Positions 6,774-35,353 of a stretch of DNA of 64,000 nucleotides are shown here, one piece after another. The translations under genes were made by a program, and so were the position numbers. Under the pieces are notes generated by a model that was not told where the DNA came from, ran no database searches, and saw nothing but the letters and a program-made list of their open reading frames with translations. Positions within the stretch are counted from its first letter, which is position 1; the number at the start of each line of letters is the position of its first letter. Source of the DNA: Archaeoglobaceae archaeon (GTDB taxonomy: Archaea > Halobacteriota > Archaeoglobi > Archaeoglobales > Archaeoglobaceae); NCBI GenBank assembly GCA_026986375.1, contig JALSOQ010000010.1, positions 26,998 to 90,997 of the forward strand, in the 5' to 3' direction.

Positions 6774-7571
6774 GTCTTCGAGCCTCTTGGTTTCGATATC
6801 TATTCCGACGATCTTTCCCCTCGGAACTACCTCTCTAAGGAATTCGTTCAGATCCTCGATGTCATTCGTGACGAACGTTCTCTCAACCCCATCGAGCTTG
6901 TAACGGACGACGTAGGTCTGCATTCCCTTCAGCTCCTCGATGTCACCGTAGAACAGAATTCTGCCCTCCTTCATTATCGCGACCTTGTCGCACACGAACT
7001 CGACGTAGTATAGGTTGTGGGCGGAGAAGAGTATCGCCTTGTCCTTCAAGTTTTTCATGAACTCGGCTATGAATAGAGACGTGGAAGGATCGAGCCCGCC
7101 GATAGGCTCGTCGTATATAAGGTAATCGGGATCGTGCATTAAGGATCTCGCTATGGAAAGCTTTCTCTTCATTCCTTTCGAAAACTCCGCTATCGTTTTG
7201 TTCGGAATTCTCAGGGATTCCATCAATTCTTCAGCCCTCCTCTTAGCAACGTCTCCTTTCACCCCGTAGAGGGATGCGAAGAAAGTGAGGTATTCGAGGG
7301 CGTTCATGTCCTCGTAGAGCGAATCGACTTCCGGAACGTAACCTATTCTCTTCCTGAGCTTACCGCGATTTTCTAAGAAGTCCAAACCGTCGTATTCAAC
7401 TCTTCCGGAATCCGGCTTGAGCAAGCCTACGAGGATCTTTATCGTCGTTGACTTTCCCGCTCCGTTTTCTCCTATAAGACCCAAGATCTCCCCCTTCCTT
7501 ATTTCGAAGCTGACACCCTTCAACGCCAAAAACTTACCGTATCTCTTAACCAAGCCCTCGACCTTTAGCAT
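6747..7571 (-). CDS. ABC transporter ATP-binding protein
   Basis: Walker [10 protein letters not shown], signature [12 protein letters not shown], Walker [12 protein letters not shown]. Confidence 0.85.
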
Positions 7572-7611
7572 CCTTATCGACGGACGATAGAATTATATAT
7601 ATCTCTTTCTC

Positions 7612-9165
7612 ATGCTCATTATAATGTTTAAAATAGCTCTGATGGAGCTCAAAAGGAAGAGGTGGGACAGGAGGTTCTTTTCAATTCTGATATTACTGGC
7701 CATTGTTTCCGTTGCCCTCTCAATTCATTCTATTTCGGAGGGAGTAAAGATAGATAGGGAAATATACACGATAAACGTCCGCGTGGATGATCCGAAGTTC
7801 GTAGTGACGAAAAATCCAGATGTAGTTGTATCGGACGGGAACGTTTTCGTTAAAGGTGATCTGAAATCTTTATCCGCCTTCGACGAGCTCAGAAATTACC
7901 TCAGAAGGCTGTATGACGAGTGGATCTACGAGAAGTTCGACGATTCTGCTTTCCCCGTTTTACTCAGGGTCGTAAGGATACCCACAAAAGCTGAAACGTT
8001 CCTTCCGAAACCTAAAAAGGTCGTCGTCAAAGAGAAAAGTGTAAGGGGGGTCTTAAAGAAGACGGAACGGGAGAAAATCGTAAAGACTACTCCAAAGATG
8101 TTTGCCGGAAATTTCAGTAAGAGCAATGTGAGTTTGAATTTCCTTACACCAGAGCAACTCAGACCTCCAAGCCTACTGGAGAAGATAATATACGCTTTCG
8201 CTTTCGTAATTCCGGTATACTTCGTAGTTCAGGTTTACTCATCCTCAGCCGTAGAGGACAAGATAAAGAGGAGACTGGATCTTCTGTTCGTTGCGAAAGA
8301 TGAGTGGAAGGTCTTCGCCGGAAAGATAATACCTTATTTTGTGCTTTCATCACTGTTAGCGATCGTAATTCTAACTGTTTTCGGAAAACCCCTCGGAGTA
8401 CCTCTCCTCCTTCCCGTAATTATCTTCATGTTCGCCTTGAGCACATTCACCGCGATGATTTCGAGGAGCTACAGGGAAATGACCTTTTTAACCATAATCC
8501 TGTCGATTCTCGTAACCATATATCTCTTCATTCCGGCCGTATTCAACGTAATGCAGTTCAGCAAGATCTCGCCCATAACACTCCTACTCGAAGATAAATA
8601 CGGACTCAAGGAATACCTGATCGCGACCCTTCAATTTTACGTTATGTCTGCGGTTCTTTTCCACCTATCCATAAATTCGATCGAAATCATGCACTCGAAG
8701 TCCAATCCTATCGATAAAGTCGTTCAAATTTCCGTGAGGACGGTAAATCGCTACGAACTCGTCCTAATCGCATCTCTTCTATCCATTCCTTTCGTCTTCT
8801 TCATCGAGTTCTTCACCCTCTCCCTCATATTCGCTTTCAAATACGCTCTGATTGTGGTAATACTGTTGATAGGCGTTATCGAGGAGTTCTTCAAATCCGT
8901 TCTGATATATTCGGGGATTAGGAACGGTCTGAACCCATATGCGTGTGCTTTTCTGTCAGCGATCGGTTTCTTCTTGGGGGAGAAGGGCGTTCTATTTTCG
9001 ATGGTTTCCCTCAAATACGTTAAGTTCACACTAATCCCCCTGATGGCTCATCTCTTAGCTTCTATAATCTTCGTCTTAACGCTTAGATTCGGATTTAAGA
9101 GAGCGTTGATCATGGCTTCCTCGTTTCACGCGATCTACGACTGGGTGGTTCTATGCTTAGCGTAG
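7612..9165 (+). CDS. polytopic membrane protein with a C-terminal PrsW-like intramembrane protease module
   Basis: Many TM helices. The C-terminal region carries IEEFFK (EExxK), GFFLGEKG and FHAIYDW (HxxxD), resembling PrsW family motifs. Divergent from the ABC ATPase gene. Confidence 0.5.
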   Translation: MLIIMFKIALMELKRKRWDRRFFSILILLAIVSVALSIHSISEGVKIDREIYTINVRVDDPKFVVTKNPDVVVSDGNVFVKGDLKSLSAFDELRNYLRRLYDEWIYEKFDDSAFPVLLRVVRIPTKAETFLPKPKKVVVKEKSVRGVLKKTEREKIVKTTPKMFAGNFSKSNVSLNFLTPEQLRPPSLLEKIIYAFAFVIPVYFVVQVYSSSAVEDKIKRRLDLLFVAKDEWKVFAGKIIPYFVLSSLLAIVILTVFGKPLGVPLLLPVIIFMFALSTFTAMISRSYREMTFLTIILSILVTIYLFIPAVFNVMQFSKISPITLLLEDKYGLKEYLIATLQFYVMSAVLFHLSINSIEIMHSKSNPIDKVVQISVRTVNRYELVLIASLLSIPFVFFIEFFTLSLIFAFKYALIVVILLIGVIEEFFKSVLIYSGIRNGLNPYACAFLSAIGFFLGEKGVLFSMVSLKYVKFTLIPLMAHLLASIIFVLTLRFGFKRALIMASSFHAIYDWVVLCLA

Positions 9166-29048: not shown

Positions 29049-29453
29049 ATGGAGAGGCCTATGGGTGTAACGCTGTTGGCGATACTGAACGCCGTTTTCG
29101 GAATGCTGTTCGTATTGGCTGGGCTATCCTTCTTCATGTATAAACCGATTTACGTCGAACTTATAAGGACGAGGATGGCGCACATGCCAATGCCGATTTC
29201 GGAAAAGGAGCTTCTGGCCTTTCTGAACGTATTCGCGATTTCTTCGATAATCGGAGGAATTATCGGAATCTTGGTCGCTTTCGGACTTTGGATGGGTTTC
29301 AGATGGGCTTGGTGGGTTTACATGGTTCTCTTGGGACTAAACTTGATCTCCGCCTTCCTTAGCCTACCTCAGGGGATAATCGGAATAGCGATAGTGCTGA
29401 TCATAATGTTTTATATGACGAGGCCTCACGTGAGGCGATACTTCAACGTGTGA
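29049..29453 (+). CDS. membrane protein (hypothetical)
   Basis: 134 aa with four hydrophobic helices. Confidence 0.4.
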   Translation: MERPMGVTLLAILNAVFGMLFVLAGLSFFMYKPIYVELIRTRMAHMPMPISEKELLAFLNVFAISSIIGGIIGILVAFGLWMGFRWAWWVYMVLLGLNLISAFLSLPQGIIGIAIVLIIMFYMTRPHVRRYFNV

Positions 29454-30274
29454 GAACCGTCGCAACTTTCGGCTTTAAATTCAAATCCCTCCCTGCAGAA
29501 CGCGTAGCTAATTCCCATTTCTTCGCACCTTTCCGCAATCGGCCTTAAGATTTTCAACCTCAGTTCTTTGGGCATGTAGAGGTATGACCCCACTCTTTCG
29601 GTGTAAATTTTCCTATACTTCTCAACGAGTTCGGGAAAAACCTTCGAGAACCTCGCCATTATATCCCTTCTGAGCTTCAGCGTGGAAGTCACGACGTGAT
29701 CTACGAAATCGCACGTCTCCAAAACCTTCATGGCCTCATCTTCGGTCAGAAAGGGAATCACCGGATCCAACCTCAAGATTACCGGGATTCCGGCATCTTT
29801 AAGCCTTTTTAGCGCCTCTATCCTCCTTTCGGGCTTAGGTGCGTTCGGCTCGATTTTCGATGCTATGGAATCGGATAGGCATGTCACGGTTACGCTCACA
29901 GCACACCTCATTTCCGAAAGGATGTCTACGTCCCTCGCAACTATGTCGCTTTTGGTAACGATTAGCAGTCTGACGTCGTAGTCTTTCATGATTTCGAGGC
30001 ATCTCCTCGTCACTTCGAGCGACATCTCGGCTGGAGGATAGGGATCGCTACTGTTCGACATCGAAATAAGAGCGTTCGCCGGTAGCTTCTGCAGATCCTT
30101 CTCAAGCTTTCTGAAAAGATCTTTTTTGAGCCTTAGGCGGTGGAACTTGGGAATGTAGGTTGCGTAACAGTAGATGCAGTCGTGAGCGCAACCGGTGTAG
30201 GGGTTGAACGAGAACTTCGGAGGGCACGTGCAGAGCTTCGACTTCCAAGGGTCGAAGGGTTTGACGTAGTGCAT
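29426..30274 (-). CDS. radical SAM protein (SplB/SPL-like family)
   Basis: GCAHDCIYCYA CxxxCxxC motif; 282 aa. Confidence 0.7.
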   Translation of the reverse strand: MHYVKPFDPWKSKLCTCPPKFSFNPYTGCAHDCIYCYATYIPKFHRLRLKKDLFRKLEKDLQKLPANALISMSNSSDPYPPAEMSLEVTRRCLEIMKDYDVRLLIVTKSDIVARDVDILSEMRCAVSVTVTCLSDSIASKIEPNAPKPERRIEALKRLKDAGIPVILRLDPVIPFLTEDEAMKVLETCDFVDHVVTSTLKLRRDIMARFSKVFPELVEKYRKIYTERVGSYLYMPKELRLKILRPIAERCEEMGISYAFCREGFEFKAESCDGSHTLKYRLT

Positions 30275-30306
30275 GATGTGTGGTATTCGTATCTGGAAAA
30301 ATCGTT

Positions 30307-30645
30307 TCAGGTGGCGAGACCGATAAGCGTCAGGATTATCATCGGAACTGCCGTGAAGAATGTCATGGCGTAGAATATCTGACTTTCGTAGCCCCTCCTC
30401 ATGGTGTGAACCACGGTTGTGAGGTGTATCAGGTATATTACCGTCGCGGCCATGAATAATACTGGCTCGGATTTCAGAAATGATGGTAGGATGCAGTGCA
30501 CGTAGAGAACGGTCGTGAATGCGGGAAGGGGTTTCAAATTTGCTCTATCGTCCCTCTTAATCGGTTTGAGTTTAATCTCCACTCTCTCGCCGCCGTAATA
30601 CCTAATCACACACCATTCGACGCTTTCGCATTTCGGGCACCTCAA
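30307..30645 (-). CDS. small membrane protein with an N-terminal CxxC (hypothetical)
   Basis: MRCPKCES start followed by two TM helices. ATGA-type overlap with the upstream small ORF. Confidence 0.35.
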   Translation of the reverse strand: MRCPKCESVEWCVIRYYGGERVEIKLKPIKRDDRANLKPLPAFTTVLYVHCILPSFLKSEPVLFMAATVIYLIHLTTVVHTMRRGYESQIFYAMTFFTAVPMIILTLIGLAT

Positions 30646-30893
30646 AAGCTTGTAGTACGTTTGGTGAGGTGATAGAACGGAGTCCGAAAAGTTCGGTTTG
30701 AAAGTGTGCCCTGTATTTTACCGTAAATATGTCTTATGAGCACCATCACTACGAATACAACGTAAGCGATGACCAACGGTTTCAGACTTTCTGGAAGCAC
30801 TATTGCCATGAAGATTGTTGGAGGAACTGCGAGGATGAAGGTCAAAAACATGAAGCGTAAAAGTGGATCAGCCATGAATCTGGATCTCATCAA
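30642..30893 (-). CDS. small membrane protein (hypothetical)
   Basis: 83 aa with two TM helices; translationally coupled to 30307-30645. Confidence 0.35.
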   Translation of the reverse strand: MMRSRFMADPLLRFMFLTFILAVPPTIFMAIVLPESLKPLVIAYVVFVVMVLIRHIYGKIQGTLSNRTFRTPFYHLTKRTTSF

Positions 30894-30970
30894 CGATATT
30901 TGAAACTTTCAGATACGCCCATTGCGATTATTAGATCGTGTTAAGTCTAATTTTCCGATTAAATCCTCAG

Positions 30971-31081
30971 CTAATGACAGTAAAATTTAAAACTTCCTGC
31001 TTTGGATTGTATTGCCAAAGAACATCGATTACTTCTTTTGTGTGCGCAAGGAAAAGGATTATCGCATATACACATTTTCAT
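30971..31081 (-). CDS. candidate 36-aa cysteine-rich small protein (MKMCICDNPFPCAHKRSNRCSLAIQSKAGSFKFYCH)
   Basis: Not in the ORF track (<60 aa). ATG at 31081 with GGAGGT 6 nt upstream, the same RBS type as the other island genes; TAG stop at 30971-30973. Confidence 0.25.
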   Translation of the reverse strand: MKMCICDNPFPCAHKRSNRCSLAIQSKAGSFKFYCH

Positions 31082-31128
31082 GCTTTAACCTCCTTAATTA
31101 TTTTTATTTTATAAAAATTTAAAAATAA

Positions 31129-32009
31129 TTATTTAGTTCGTGCATAATCACAGATGTCTCTTAGAGGGCATTCGGGACATTTTGGATCGTGTTCTTCACA
31201 CTACTTTCTTCCGACGTTCCAAAACAGTGTGTCAATTCTTGCGGGGAATTCTGGAAAGATGAATCTCGCAATAAGTTGAATATCCTTGTCTACTTGATCA
31301 GTTTTTCTATATTTCCAATACAGATACCATGGTATCCATCCTATATTTTTGAAAACTCTACTAGCGACTTTTCTAACGTGAACATCGATTGGAATGGGAA
31401 TGTATTCCTTACCTTCATCTGTAACTTTAAAGTTAGGTAGTTTTTCTTTAATTTGATCGAACCATGGGTGTCTCGGCATCAGACCATTTTCCCTGTATAT
31501 AAAATCTCTTACGAGAACGCTTGCATTCTTCTCGCCGATACCAGGTATATTTCTAAACATAAAGTATAGCTCTATGCAACTATATTCTCTGTTCTCAAAC
31601 ATAGTTATTAGGTGTTTGATTTTTGAAATTTTGAAATTAATGCTTTGTTTATATCCCTTGAAACGCCATTTATATAGTCCTCACAGTCTTTTTCAGAGCA
31701 TTTACTGGAAAACTTGTCAGAAAAATACTCCCTCACTAAGCTTTTGATATCTGCTGAAAGTATTTCATTTGGTTCTAAGCTTCCAATTCGTTCAAGAAGC
31801 CAATGTGGAAATTCAAATGCATGATCGGCACTTTTAAGCCCATATCTGTTGCATATGAAACCCAATAGCGGTGCAAAGTCGTAATTGCTTAAAGTTTCAT
31901 AAGCTTCTTTTTTCAAGTCCATCCAAGCTTCTTTACAAAATTCCTTTTCCCACTTTTCGCAGATTTTTCTAATCTCCTCTACCTTCGTCTTAAAATCCTC
32001 AAATTGCAC
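31129..32009 (-). pseudogene. endonuclease III-type HhH-GPD/[4Fe-4S] DNA glycosylase gene in three fragments. Probably a pseudogene; recoding is the alternative.
   Basis: Fragment 1 is 32009-31608 (N-terminal helices). TAA plus 2 nt and a frame change follow. Fragment 2 is 31602-31204 (IPGIGEKNASVL HhH with Lys, PIDVHVRKV Asp motif, ...FWNVGRK). An in-frame TAG (31203-31201) follows. Fragment 3 is CEEHDPKCPECPLRDICDYARTK (31200-31132), a perfect C-x6-C-x2-C-x5-C motif, then TAA. Confidence 0.6.
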
Positions 32010-32080
32010 TTTATCACCTCCACTAATTATTTAATTATTTTAATAAAAAATAAAGGTAAAATTAAAAATTTATATAAAAA

Positions 32081-32671
32081 TTAAATCATTGTTGGCTCCC
32101 AAAATGCAATCCAGACTTTTATCATTTTCTCGATAAGACTTTTTCTTTCAGATAGTAGTGGTCTTTCGGAATATTTCTCACCCAAGTATATCCTTAAACC
32201 TTCTCTACCAGTTTTAAGACTCAATCCTAACTTTCTCGCAATCTCTTCCATTCTTTCTTCTGGAATCTTCATTTTGGATTTGTCGATAATACCCCGAACT
32301 ATTCCGTATTTCTGTTTTACGAATATCTCATTGTTCTCGTCTGCCCATATGTCTTTAGCCTTTCTTGCGTTGAGGTAAGTAGATATGGATTTTGCTCCAC
32401 CTATCCATCCATCAATGTTCTTTTTCCCCCACCACATTTCAAATCTATATAATTTACCGTTTACATCCGCTAAGACATCCAAAACTTCCAAAATATTATC
32501 CAATGCCTGTTTTTTCTCTTCATTCGATAAAACAGCGTATGCCGGTTCTTTTTTCGTTTGCTTAATTTCGAGAATTTTTACATCTAATCTGCTATTACCT
32601 TCAGAAGATTTTTCATCCGTTTGTTGTATTATATAAATCCAAGCACCGCAGTTTGGACACCTTATTTTCAT
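32081..32671 (-). CDS. hypothetical protein with an N-terminal CxxC
   Basis: 196-aa ORF (MKIRCPNCGAW...) with GAGGTGA 7 nt upstream of the ATG. No recognisable domain. Confidence 0.5.
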   Translation of the reverse strand: MKIRCPNCGAWIYIIQQTDEKSSEGNSRLDVKILEIKQTKKEPAYAVLSNEEKKQALDNILEVLDVLADVNGKLYRFEMWWGKKNIDGWIGGAKSISTYLNARKAKDIWADENNEIFVKQKYGIVRGIIDKSKMKIPEERMEEIARKLGLSLKTGREGLRIYLGEKYSERPLLSERKSLIEKMIKVWIAFWEPTMI

Positions 32672-32811
32672 CTTTTTATCACCTCAAAATTACGTTGTAG
32701 AAAGCTAATTTAAATTTTTTGGTAGAAGATGATTAGAAGGTGTTAGTAAGGTAAGAGTAGATAATCTTTATTTAATAAAATCTAAAAATAAATTTAAAAA
32801 ATTTAAAAATT

Positions 32812-33486
32812 TTAAGGATCATTTAGAAGTCTTTTAACTTCTTCTATGAACGTTTTTGGATCGTTTTTAGCCAGATTTCTTAAACGCTCTCCATTTCTTG
32901 CTCTTATTTCGAAAAAGGCATCGATGTATGGGTAATCTTCTAATTTAACTTTAGGCAATAAACTTACTTTGAGCTCTTTTTCCAATTTCTTTAAACAAAC
33001 TTCCTTCGTCGATTTAGGTAGTTCCAAATTTTTGGGTAGTCTTAGCTTCCATAGTCTTACGAAATCGCATCCTACCCACGGTCCTATTTCTGCACCACCG
33101 AATCCGTGAGTTTTTCTTATTGCAGTGTAAAACTCCTCTGGATTTTTAATATGAGTTAAGTCGTCTCTTTGAAGGTTGTATATCTCATCTAATGCCAGTA
33201 TACTCTTCACACCATTGAGAAAACGTTTTCTGTTGAACTTTATCTTTGAAGCCAAGTCTTCCAGTTTGATATCGCTTAAACGCCTCAAATAACTTGGTAT
33301 GTTCCTTTTACTTCCAGCAATCGTTTCAAGTCTTTCAAAACATCTCTTAGCGAATTTATCACCTCTGCCAGTTGTAGTAAATAATGCATATAGCATGCCA
33401 TTGAAGGGAATATCCGAACTTTTCCACTTAAGACATTCATTTTTACCCAACAAAACCATCTTTTCAATAATATCCTTCGCATTCAT
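32812..33486 (-). CDS. hypothetical protein, possibly an HhH-GPD-like (DNA glycosylase superfamily) fold
   Basis: GGAGGTG lies 6 nt upstream of the ATG at 33486. RKTHGFGGAEIGPWVGCDFVR resembles a helix-hairpin-helix GxG loop preceded by a helical N-domain laid out like the neighbouring EndoIII-like gene. No FeS motif. Confidence 0.45.
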   Translation of the reverse strand: MNAKDIIEKMVLLGKNECLKWKSSDIPFNGMLYALFTTTGRGDKFAKRCFERLETIAGSKRNIPSYLRRLSDIKLEDLASKIKFNRKRFLNGVKSILALDEIYNLQRDDLTHIKNPEEFYTAIRKTHGFGGAEIGPWVGCDFVRLWKLRLPKNLELPKSTKEVCLKKLEKELKVSLLPKVKLEDYPYIDAFFEIRARNGERLRNLAKNDPKTFIEEVKRLLNDP

Positions 33487-33532
33487 AACCCCACCTCCCA
33501 ACCAATTTAAAGAAATTTTAAAATTAAAAATT

Positions 33533-34273
33533 TTAAAAATTTACTTCATTGGTAAACTTGGTTTTAGTTTTTATCTGCTCTATCTTTTCCAGAATCAGCG
33601 GAATGGTTAAGTTGATCGTTTTCGTCTCATCGGGCATGATCGTTTCGGTTTTAATCGCTTTTTCGCTATAACCTTGATATTCCGCAGAAACCCTTACAGT
33701 CATTGGATAATCTTCCCGATTAGTAAACTTGAACTCTATGTCTGGAAATCCCTGATGATAGAATGCGTTATAGAAAGCTAACGGATACGGTGTGTAAAAC
33801 ATCGTTTTGACTCCGAGTTTTGCTACACCGTAACCAAGTGGATAAAGAAACACTTCCTGAACCACAGAATCTAAAGTTTTACCGTTCTCTACCAGCTCTA
33901 TAACAACTCTGTACGTTTTAGCTTGATATTCAGGACTAAGAGTTAGATCAGCAGAATATGTTCCTCTCTTGTCAGCCTTCTTTACGCATTGTATTATAAC
34001 TTCATCAGTATCTGGGTCCATTAGTTTAAAGTAAAGTGTAACTGGTCGATCGGTTATGACTTCTACATTAGTTCTTACAGTGTCCTTATTTTTGTCAGCG
34101 TCTTCCGTATCGACAGCTTGGCAGTTGTAATTCTTAATGTGTGGCTTAGTTACTAAAGTCAAAGGTGTTACGGTTGGAGTAGCTATAGGTTTTACTTCTT
34201 CCTTCTCAGCACAGCCTACCAGCAATAAGGAAGTTAGGACTAAAATCAATATTGCTCGACTACCGAAAACCAT
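33533..34273 (-). CDS. putative secreted lipoprotein (hypothetical)
   Basis: Signal peptide plus lipobox-like LLLVGC, a Thr/Pro linker, then a beta-rich body. GAGGTG upstream; the ATG at 34273 is preferred over 34285. Confidence 0.6.
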   Translation of the reverse strand: MVFGSRAILILVLTSLLLVGCAEKEEVKPIATPTVTPLTLVTKPHIKNYNCQAVDTEDADKNKDTVRTNVEVITDRPVTLYFKLMDPDTDEVIIQCVKKADKRGTYSADLTLSPEYQAKTYRVVIELVENGKTLDSVVQEVFLYPLGYGVAKLGVKTMFYTPYPLAFYNAFYHQGFPDIEFKFTNREDYPMTVRVSAEYQGYSEKAIKTETIMPDETKTINLTIPLILEKIEQIKTKTKFTNEVNF

Positions 34274-34384
34274 TCTCTGCATCACCTCTCTAAATTTTTT
34301 TATTTAAATATTTTTATAAAAAAATAAAATAAAAATATTGGCAAAATATTTATGATTTTTGGGTGACTGACACAGTTTTAAAAG

Positions 34385-34665
34385 TTGGTACTGCCACCTT
34401 CTACTCTCACTGATCCTACTGGCATATCTCCCACGTTCGCCCCCGTCCCCGAATACTGCACACCGAAGTCGGGAATTTGGGGGAGTCCCCCATGCCATGA
34501 ACCACCGTGTGGACGGGCGTTGAAACCCGTCCCGATCGAACATTAGGACGGGGACGAACGCCCTTCTGCCCAACCGCCCACCACCCCCGTAAAAATCCCG
34601 GCCCGACTCGGGGGCCCACGTCGGGCCGTTCATCTCATGTTTGTCTTTGCGTATCGATGCATCCC
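34385..34665 (-). ncRNA. unclassified GC-rich structured RNA candidate (boundaries approximate)
   Basis: GC-rich block inside AT-rich DNA with no credible ORF. Helices: 34598-34606/34619-34627 (9 bp), 34510-34516/34525-34531 (7 bp), 34478-34490 hairpin, and long-range 34433-34447/34545-34559 (15 bp). The single non-Watson-Crick pair in the long helix is G:U only on the minus strand. Confidence 0.5.
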
Positions 34666-34822
34666 CACATCCGTTTGCATGTCCGAGTATATATATATTC
34701 ATGACATGATCTGAACATATATATTTATTCATATAAACGCATGCTTGCATTTATAAATGTATTTATTTTCGTCCGTAAATATAAAAAATGATATATATTT
34801 TGATTTAGAGTTCGTAAAAAAA

Positions 34823-35353
34823 CTACCCGAAATATAGCTCCTTATTTATCCAGGGGATCAAGGCCATCGTTACCGCTATCCTCGTAAGCTCTACCCTCGA
34901 AATGACGCCCTTCGTGAGGTAGTGAATGGCACCCATCCTTTCTCCGATGTTATCTATGCCCGTTATCTCCTCCATCACGTCTCCGACTTCCTTCCCCTTC
35001 AAAGCCTCCTTAACGACGCAAGGTGGAAACTCGAATCCCGGGCCGAATCCTATCGTGAACCTCTCGCCGTCGTAAACCACAGCGACTTGGAAGTCCATGT
35101 AGCCCGTCATCGTATTCTCCATACTGAATAATCCAGCTTCAACCCCTACGCTGAAGTCGCAGTCGTCAAAAGCCCTTATGGCTCTATTTATGGCTCCCCT
35201 AACGACGTCATAATCGAAGGGCTGGGGAGGAACTCCGGAATCGACCGATTTAGGTATAACTTCCACTTCACCGAAGAACCGCTCGAATGCGAGTCTTACC
35301 CCTTCAACCTTCGTCGGATTTTTCGAACCGACGACAACCCTCATCATGATCAA
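34823..35353 (-). CDS. non-canonical purine NTP phosphatase (inosine/xanthosine triphosphatase, YjjX/DUF84 family)
   Basis: The VVVGSKNPTKVEGVRLAF N-terminus is typical of the family; 176 aa. Confidence 0.7.
   Translation of the reverse strand: MIMMRVVVGSKNPTKVEGVRLAFERFFGEVEVIPKSVDSGVPPQPFDYDVVRGAINRAIRAFDDCDFSVGVEAGLFSMENTMTGYMDFQVAVVYDGERFTIGFGPGFEFPPCVVKEALKGKEVGDVMEEITGIDNIGERMGAIHYLTKGVISRVELTRIAVTMALIPWINKELYFG

Follow-up and report, generated by a model that had tools for sequence, protein, structure and literature searches.

A twice-disrupted endonuclease III-like gene on a genomic island of an Archaeoglobaceae archaeon is very probably a pseudogene and not a recoded gene

On the minus strand of the 64,000-nucleotide stretch of Archaeoglobaceae DNA analyzed here (the window), what appears to be a DNA glycosylase gene lies in three pieces: an N-terminal open reading frame (ORF1) closed by a TAA, a second frame (ORF2) that takes up the protein in another register, and a short cysteine-rich tail set apart from ORF2 by an in-frame TAG. 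This arrangement raises the question of whether the gene is decaying or whether its product is still made, either by recoding or as separate fragments. A sequence-only reading took the locus to be one Nth-like gene that is decaying as a pseudogene after two lesions, while allowing for stop-codon readthrough or recoding, for errors of assembly, or for a very recent inactivation. The observations described below make it highly probable that the gene is a genuine pseudogene, disabled by two independent ordinary mutations.

The order of the pieces, their motifs and the cysteine spacing are as that reading described them (Table 1). ORF1 starts with GTG, nine bases downstream of GGAGGTGA, and its product ends ISKFQKSNT-TAA-TAA, the second in-frame TAA (31607-31605) directly following the first. 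Judging by its elements, the spacer upstream probably served the once intact gene as promoter and RBS. ORF2 lies in the -1 frame relative to ORF1, opens with MFENREY and closes with WNVGRK-TAG; its ATG had been placed two nucleotides after the ORF1 stop, which is correct when counted from the second TAA, while 5 nt separate it from the first. Within ORF2 are found the HhH motif IPGIGEKNASVL (31548-31513, Lys codon 31530-31528), the Asp motif PIPIDVHVRKV (core PIDVHV, Asp codon 31386-31384) and a family-specific insert with an invariant WFDQIK. Reading past the TAG in the same frame yields CEEHDPKCPECPLRDICDYARTK-TAA, whose C-x6-C-x2-C-x5-C loop is a predicted [4Fe-4S] cluster site. A GGAGG-like or other Shine-Dalgarno-like motif was sought upstream of the ORF2 ATG and none is present there, in agreement with the earlier remark that the middle fragment has no such sequence of its own.

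Table 1. Positions of the pseudogene, its parts and the surrounding island within the window.
Feature	Coordinates	Strand	Basis or content
Fragment 1 (ORF1), N-terminal helical part	31608..32009	-	133 codons + TAA; profile 8-135, E=1.3e-30
Upstream spacer, AT-rich, with RBS GGAGGTGA and TATA-like TTTATATA	32010..32080	-	read from sequence
Frame junction, net one-base loss	31603..31613	-	alignment, sequence, profile gap 136-140
Fragment 2 (ORF2), catalytic core	31204..31602 (to 31201 with TAG)	-	profile 141-267, E=1.4e-53
Premature TAG	31201..31203	-	homolog column Tyr/Trp/Phe; profile position 268 skipped
Orphaned tail, predicted [4Fe-4S] loop	31129..31200	-	23 codons + TAA; profile 269-290, E=8.8e-09; weak Pfam EndIII_4Fe-2S match
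Strain-specific low-GC insertion, ~4.56 kb, with pseudogene and orphan ORFs	30276..34832	.	GC, flank comparison
NTPase gene, flank	34823-35353
SPL-like (SPL/DUF1848-type) radical-SAM gene, flank	29426-30274	-

Comparison with a collection of 5.8 billion sequences returned 19 metagenomic homologs of the read-through translation (E 5e-65 to 1e-45), which are 266-327 aa long, share 36-45% identity with it and extend over 86-100% of the concatenated query. All 19 align as one uninterrupted ORF spanning both break points; the window copy has no such uninterrupted reading frame over the domains that the homologs encode, since the frame changes after codon 133 and the TAG precedes the loop. An HMM was made from the 19 homologs, the window sequence being left out to avoid circularity, and the three pieces were scored separately. 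They fall on the profile in colinear order and without overlap, and the only positions left uncovered between them are 136-140, at the junction, and 268, at the TAG. By this comparison ORF1, ORF2 and the tail are segments of one gene, with a match far beyond chance, and the reading of the locus as a single Nth-like gene with two lesions is borne out by their colinearity with intact single-ORF homologs.

Both lesions can be described at the level of single codons. At the junction, frame 0 of the window reads K-S-N-T-stop and the -1 frame reads L-I-T-M-F-E-N-R-E-Y, where the homologs have K-N-T-(T/D)-P-I-x-(I/M)-F-E-N-R-E-Y; the C at 31611 is common to ACC and CTA. As the total length equals that of the homologs, the junction lesion corresponds to a net deletion of a single nucleotide in the interval 31603-31613. 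The alignment further identifies the apparent start codon of ORF2 as the ancestral internal Met/Ile of a conserved (T/K)(M/I)FENR motif. At the second lesion, the homolog column is always aromatic (GRKYC, GREYC, GREWC, GVNFC). TAG is one substitution away from Tyr codons and likewise from Trp codons, so the lesion is most simply explained as an ordinary nonsense mutation.

One alternative is that the gene has been split without being lost, such that ORF1 and ORF2 are both translated and give a cluster-less glycosylase or a DNA-binding protein. The ORF2 ATG lies 5 nt past the ORF1 stop, a distance at which ORF2 could be made by termination-reinitiation, and two strains have both fragments in identical form. 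However, with 3 SNPs in 8.4 kb as the only differences between these strains, their identity is uninformative on selection, and the ATG is the ancestral residue of the (T/K)(M/I)FENR motif as opposed to a newly evolved start. None of the homologs is split at the junction, and the split protein would lack the Cys loop, although this is family-invariant and structurally integral in EndoIII/MutY. A functional split is thus very improbable, while ORF2 might still be produced by coupled reinitiation.

It could also be that the gene is intact in the organism and that both lesions are artefacts of sequencing or assembly, given that the genome is a draft of 30 contigs and that a short CC run stands beside the frameshift. 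Exact look-up found the products of ORF1 and ORF2 both recorded in NCBI, ENA and Logan, and in JGI/IMG with ORF2 identical and ORF1 entered with V instead of the initial M; the public records of the fragment products come from contigs of 168 kb, 137 kb and 21 kb, but the NCBI, JGI and ENA records may represent one assembly deposited repeatedly, and only the Logan contig is clearly separate. This contig, from run SRR33214772, matches the window along 8402 bases without a gap and with 3 mismatches (99.964% identity), and because of these three SNPs it represents a separate consensus. It carries the identical frameshift and the identical TAG, which makes random assembly error unlikely and speaks against the assembly-error explanation that had been entertained earlier. 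In addition, a TAG-creating substitution is atypical of assembly error, and two errors within 400 nt would be improbable in an otherwise clean 8.4-kb stretch. Taken together, these observations leave an artefact very improbable, the form that it might still take being a systematic error common to assemblies of related data.

The last alternative is that a full-length enzyme is still produced, by a -1 frameshift at the junction combined with UAG readthrough or pyrrolysine insertion. This idea draws on the Fe-S loop beyond the TAG, which is perfectly kept and in frame, and on the sequence that follows the junction, where the 107 nt downstream contain a predicted hairpin of -23.5 kcal/mol at 37 C that starts just past it. 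For decoding of the TAG, the 1.46-Mb assembly (30 contigs, rated 99.94% complete) was searched for the required components. PylS was not found in this genome, the best PylS_Cterm score being 20.3 bits against a cut-off of 178 and the top matches being other class II synthetase-like frames, and none of the 44 tRNAs predicted by ARAGORN in the whole assembly has a CUA anticodon. TAG closes 280 of the 1361 stop-to-stop ORFs of at least 200 codons (~21%) and is therefore a normal stop in this genome. Pyrrolysine or suppressor decoding is rejected on these three grounds, and the suggestion of readthrough or recoding made from the sequence finds no support. For the frameshift, no X-XXY-YYZ slippery heptamer is in register at the junction (CAA AAA TCA AAC ACC TAA TAA), and re-pairing from ACC to CAC would be poor. 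The hairpin is AU-rich in a host that is apparently a thermophile and is only 1.8 standard deviations below shuffled sequences (z=-1.78), 10 of 200 shuffles folding as well. With no slippery site, and with a weak hairpin as the candidate for the stable stimulatory structure expected 5-9 nt downstream, a programmed -1 frameshift is rejected too. No structure was detected after the TAG (z=-0.5), and an Rfam scan of 30000-35000 at E<=1 yielded nothing besides two miRNA matches that are spurious and do not fall in the gene. In the homologs both sites are free of stops and shifts, and the stops of other disrupted copies sit elsewhere. To our knowledge, it would be without precedent for one accessory gene to depend on two distinct recoding events, and recoding is extremely improbable.

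The family to which this pseudogene belongs is not captured by the curated models of its superfamily. Pfam PF00730 (HhH-GPD) gives no match and EndIII_4Fe-2S reaches 14.4 bits against a cut-off of 20.5, while the NCBIfam models remain far below their cut-offs (MutY 18.7 vs 286.5, Nth 12.1 vs 405, and TIGR03252 likewise). This indicates a divergent branch of the superfamily, which is neither Nth nor MutY proper. Its relationship to these enzymes is nevertheless recognizable, as the family profile matches the solved EndoIII structure 9nzc with E=1.7e-5. In this alignment, the profile segment ipGiGpKkA corresponds to LPGIGRKSANVV of 9nzc, placing the Lys at the Schiff-base Lys, PiDvHV corresponds to PVDTHV with the Asp at the catalytic Asp, and the Cys loop is aligned as well. 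In the HhH-GPD superfamily a Gly/Pro-rich stretch and a catalytic Asp come after the helix-hairpin-helix, and a Lys in the HhH is the mark of bifunctional enzymes; the family has the hallmarks of a bifunctional glycosylase/AP lyase. The four Cys columns of the cluster loop are invariant in 20 of 20 sequences; in the window they stand behind the TAG.

At the level of structure, an AlphaFold (AF2) model of the intact homolog P0003 (pLDDT 91.4, pTM 0.87) has E. coli EndoIII (2abk) as its top Foldseek match, with a target-normalized TM of 0.74, and its 40 best PDB matches are EndoIII, MutY, MUTYH, NTHL1 and Mig, all at probability 1.00 and 13-17% identity. As modeled on P0003, and not on the window copy itself, the family is a divergent [4Fe-4S] HhH-GPD branch with a two-domain helical fold. 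This predicted fold is shared with the Nth/MutY/Mig.MthI group (2abk; 1kea, the M. thermautotrophicus thymine-DNA glycosylase). EndoIII and the family are alike in G-I-G-x-K, in P-I-D-V-H / V-D-T-H and in the Cys loop after G-R-x-aromatic-C. They differ in the N-terminus, which is longer in the family, and in about 30 extra residues, including the invariant WFDQIK, between Lys and Asp (a spacing of ~48 residues in the window vs ~18 in EndoIII). The description of the gene as endonuclease III-type thus holds for fold and motifs, but the gene belongs to a divergent accessory subfamily and is not the housekeeping Nth. In contrast to Nth, the family is accessory and island-borne, and the window copy is broken.

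The pseudogene lies in a stretch with a GC content of 0.34-0.40 vs about 0.49, between an NTPase gene and a radical-SAM gene that are adjacent in 4 of 7 genus relatives (gaps of ~10 bp in L027, L028 and L030 and of ~50 bp in L025). The two genes also abut in L029, where the fetched locus ends within the NTPase gene, and two further relatives (L024, 671-1500; L026) have an unrelated insert of ~820 bp between them. Nucleotide homology of the relatives to the window breaks at ~30275 and resumes at ~34833; together with the adjacency of the flanking genes, this identifies the 4.56 kb as a strain-specific insertion at a variable site. The only direct repeats flanking it are AT-rich low-complexity matches, and no integrase was seen at the NTPase/radical-SAM intergenic site. 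Across 40 related genomes no ortholog of the glycosylase was found, the only hits being weak C-terminal matches to canonical Nth/MutY. A canonical HhH-GPD (Nth-type) gene is intact on contig C26 of the same genome (232-codon open frame, 99.8 bits), and the island copy is therefore dispensable.

The island carries other ORFs besides the pseudogene. A 250-aa lipoprotein-like ORF (33533-34285, minus strand) shares 56% identity over its C-terminal 95 residues with positions 27475-27759 of contig C9, and the remaining island sequence has no match within the same genome. The 196-aa ORF at 32081-32671 (minus strand) begins with an MJ0042-type CxxC zinc ribbon that scores below the cut-off; neither it nor the ORF at 32812-33501 (minus strand) matched a Pfam, NCBIfam or PADLOC family. 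The 229-aa product of the latter was considered as a second HhH-GPD relative and rejected, as it had no Pfam or NCBIfam match and an hhalign probability of 0.6% against the family. A homolog of the flanking radical-SAM gene (50% identity) is found at 7493-8350 of locus L015, 3 kb from a glycosylase copy and on the opposite strand. A functional link between the two genes was discarded, because the radical-SAM gene lies on the other strand in L015 and is native in relatives that have no island, and the proximity in L015 is probably a coincidence.

As to how the locus reached its present state, an accessory EndoIII/MutY-fold DNA glycosylase gene came in on the 4.56-kb foreign island, encoding a protein of bifunctional type with the HhH Lys, the catalytic Asp and a [4Fe-4S] loop, whose activity was presumably base excision with AP-lyase chemistry. 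The loss of one net base at 31603-31613 then shifted the frame after codon 133, and an aromatic codon (Tyr or Trp in relatives) became TAG at 31203-31201. The original start and RBS would now yield no more than an N-terminal fragment of 133 residues, since the catalytic core has no RBS of its own and the Fe-S loop is cut off. With a housekeeping Nth intact elsewhere in the genome, the inactivation would have been tolerated or favored.

The inactivation is fairly recent but not brand-new, so the earlier suggestion of a very recent event stands in part. The HhH, catalytic and cluster residues are all intact in the window copy and the tail is still open, which indicates that the inactivation is not old. 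However, in a leave-one-out comparison, each member being set against the columns that do not vary among the rest, the window copy deviates at 8 of 54 columns, one of the eight being a junction placeholder and another possibly an alignment shift; D to N, K to N, S to E and F to A are the four non-conservative changes among them. For each of the 19 homologs the number of such deviations lies in the range 0-6, and P0005, with six, shows conservative changes only. Deviation of this extent is compatible either with a divergent lineage or with constraint that was relaxed for some time. Of the three strain SNPs, that at 31145 falls in the 69-nt dead tail, where it turns a Tyr into a Ser; this hints slightly at a tail that is no longer under constraint.

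Beyond this genome, copies of the gene occur in MAGs of Hadarchaeales, Acidilobaceae, Desulfurococcales, Nitrososphaerota, Aenigmatarchaeota and Ca. Geocrenenecus, and the subfamily moves horizontally among thermophilic archaea of several phyla; no relatives of the glycosylase were found among IMG/VR viral contigs. Disruption is frequent, affecting 4 of the 7 genomic copies examined (the window included), each in a different way. In L015, a TAA replaces an invariant Glu in a copy that sits in a 41%-GC islet of a 59-69%-GC genome, the L019 copy has several frame changes, and an internal deletion in the L020 copy removes the segment that separates the HhH from the Cys loop. The copies in L016 and L017 are intact, and that in L018 is cut by the contig end. 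Two of the disrupted copies, from MAGs of different phyla, are close to homolog P0004: that of L015 (3845-4687; Hadarchaeales, 'JZ' 2017 bin) is 99% identical to it over the full length, and that of L019 (2075-2913; Aenigmatarchaeota, 'JZ' 2017 bin) matches it at 97% identity in the final 63 residues and at 63% in the frameshifted rest. Such closeness suggests that the gene was transferred very recently, that the two share a mobile element, or that cross-binning has occurred.

The neighborhoods of the family are variable, though most include defense or DNA-modification genes, and no constant partner gene is found across the loci examined. Neighbors include a Type II methyltransferase and a 1280-aa helicase (L017), a short pAgo and BrxA (L019), a short pAgo with an EVE domain, Hjc and a 1074-aa protein (L031), Mrr_cat (L035), a 1012-aa protein with a faint N6_Mtase match (L036), and a UDG-superfamily gene with a helicase bearing NOV_C (L016). 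L031 (762-3313) and L019 (4212-6795) have a short-pAgo pair in common within a few kb of the glycosylase, in which a Piwi protein of ~430 aa precedes a partner of 424 aa. In PADLOC-DB 2.0, no model matches P0003 or the island proteins, and matches are confined to neighboring genes in other loci.

Glycosylases and EndoIII-like domains are already known in defense, as in Brig1 and the END nucleases (PMC12191111), and genes for the toxic PabI-family restriction glycosylases are often inactivated in Helicobacter (PMC10273834). PabI, Brig1 and END proteins are likewise set among defense and DNA-modification genes, and the frequent inactivation of the PabI family resembles that of the island family. 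There are also clear differences. PabI and CcoLI have an unrelated HALFPIPE fold, unlike the island family, and R.CcoLI, which was considered as a precedent for an HhH-GPD restriction glycosylase, was set aside for belonging to the PabI/HALFPIPE family (PMC10273834). The EndoIII domains of END nucleases are inactivated, having no catalytic residues, and are joined to a PLD nuclease, whereas the island family keeps the Lys and Asp and stands alone (PMC12191111). By analogy with these systems, the family may have a role in defense, restriction or epigenetic repair. A more specific proposal, which is possible but unlikely on present evidence, is that these proteins are uncharacterized stand-alone EndoIII-fold glycosylases/lyases of archaeal defense islands that become toxic or costly once orphaned, in which case the window copy would reflect selection against the gene and not neutral decay. 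Their substrates might then be modified or foreign bases, or deaminated methyl-cytosines beside methyltransferases. If the gene is indeed costly or toxic once orphaned, this would explain the independent lesions in four of the seven copies.

For the annotation of this genome, the three pieces belong together as one pseudogene and are neither two hypothetical proteins nor a recoded gene, which also removes one candidate for archaeal stop-codon reassignment. As a finding, the pseudogene of the window is ordinary, and the residual interest, which is modest, lies in an uncharacterized, mobile and often-broken EndoIII-like family. The analysis delineates this divergent EndoIII/MutY-fold subfamily, which no curated model covers. 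Ultimately, the biochemistry of an intact member would tell whether HhH-GPD glycosylases are mobile defense or epigenetic-repair modules in archaea.
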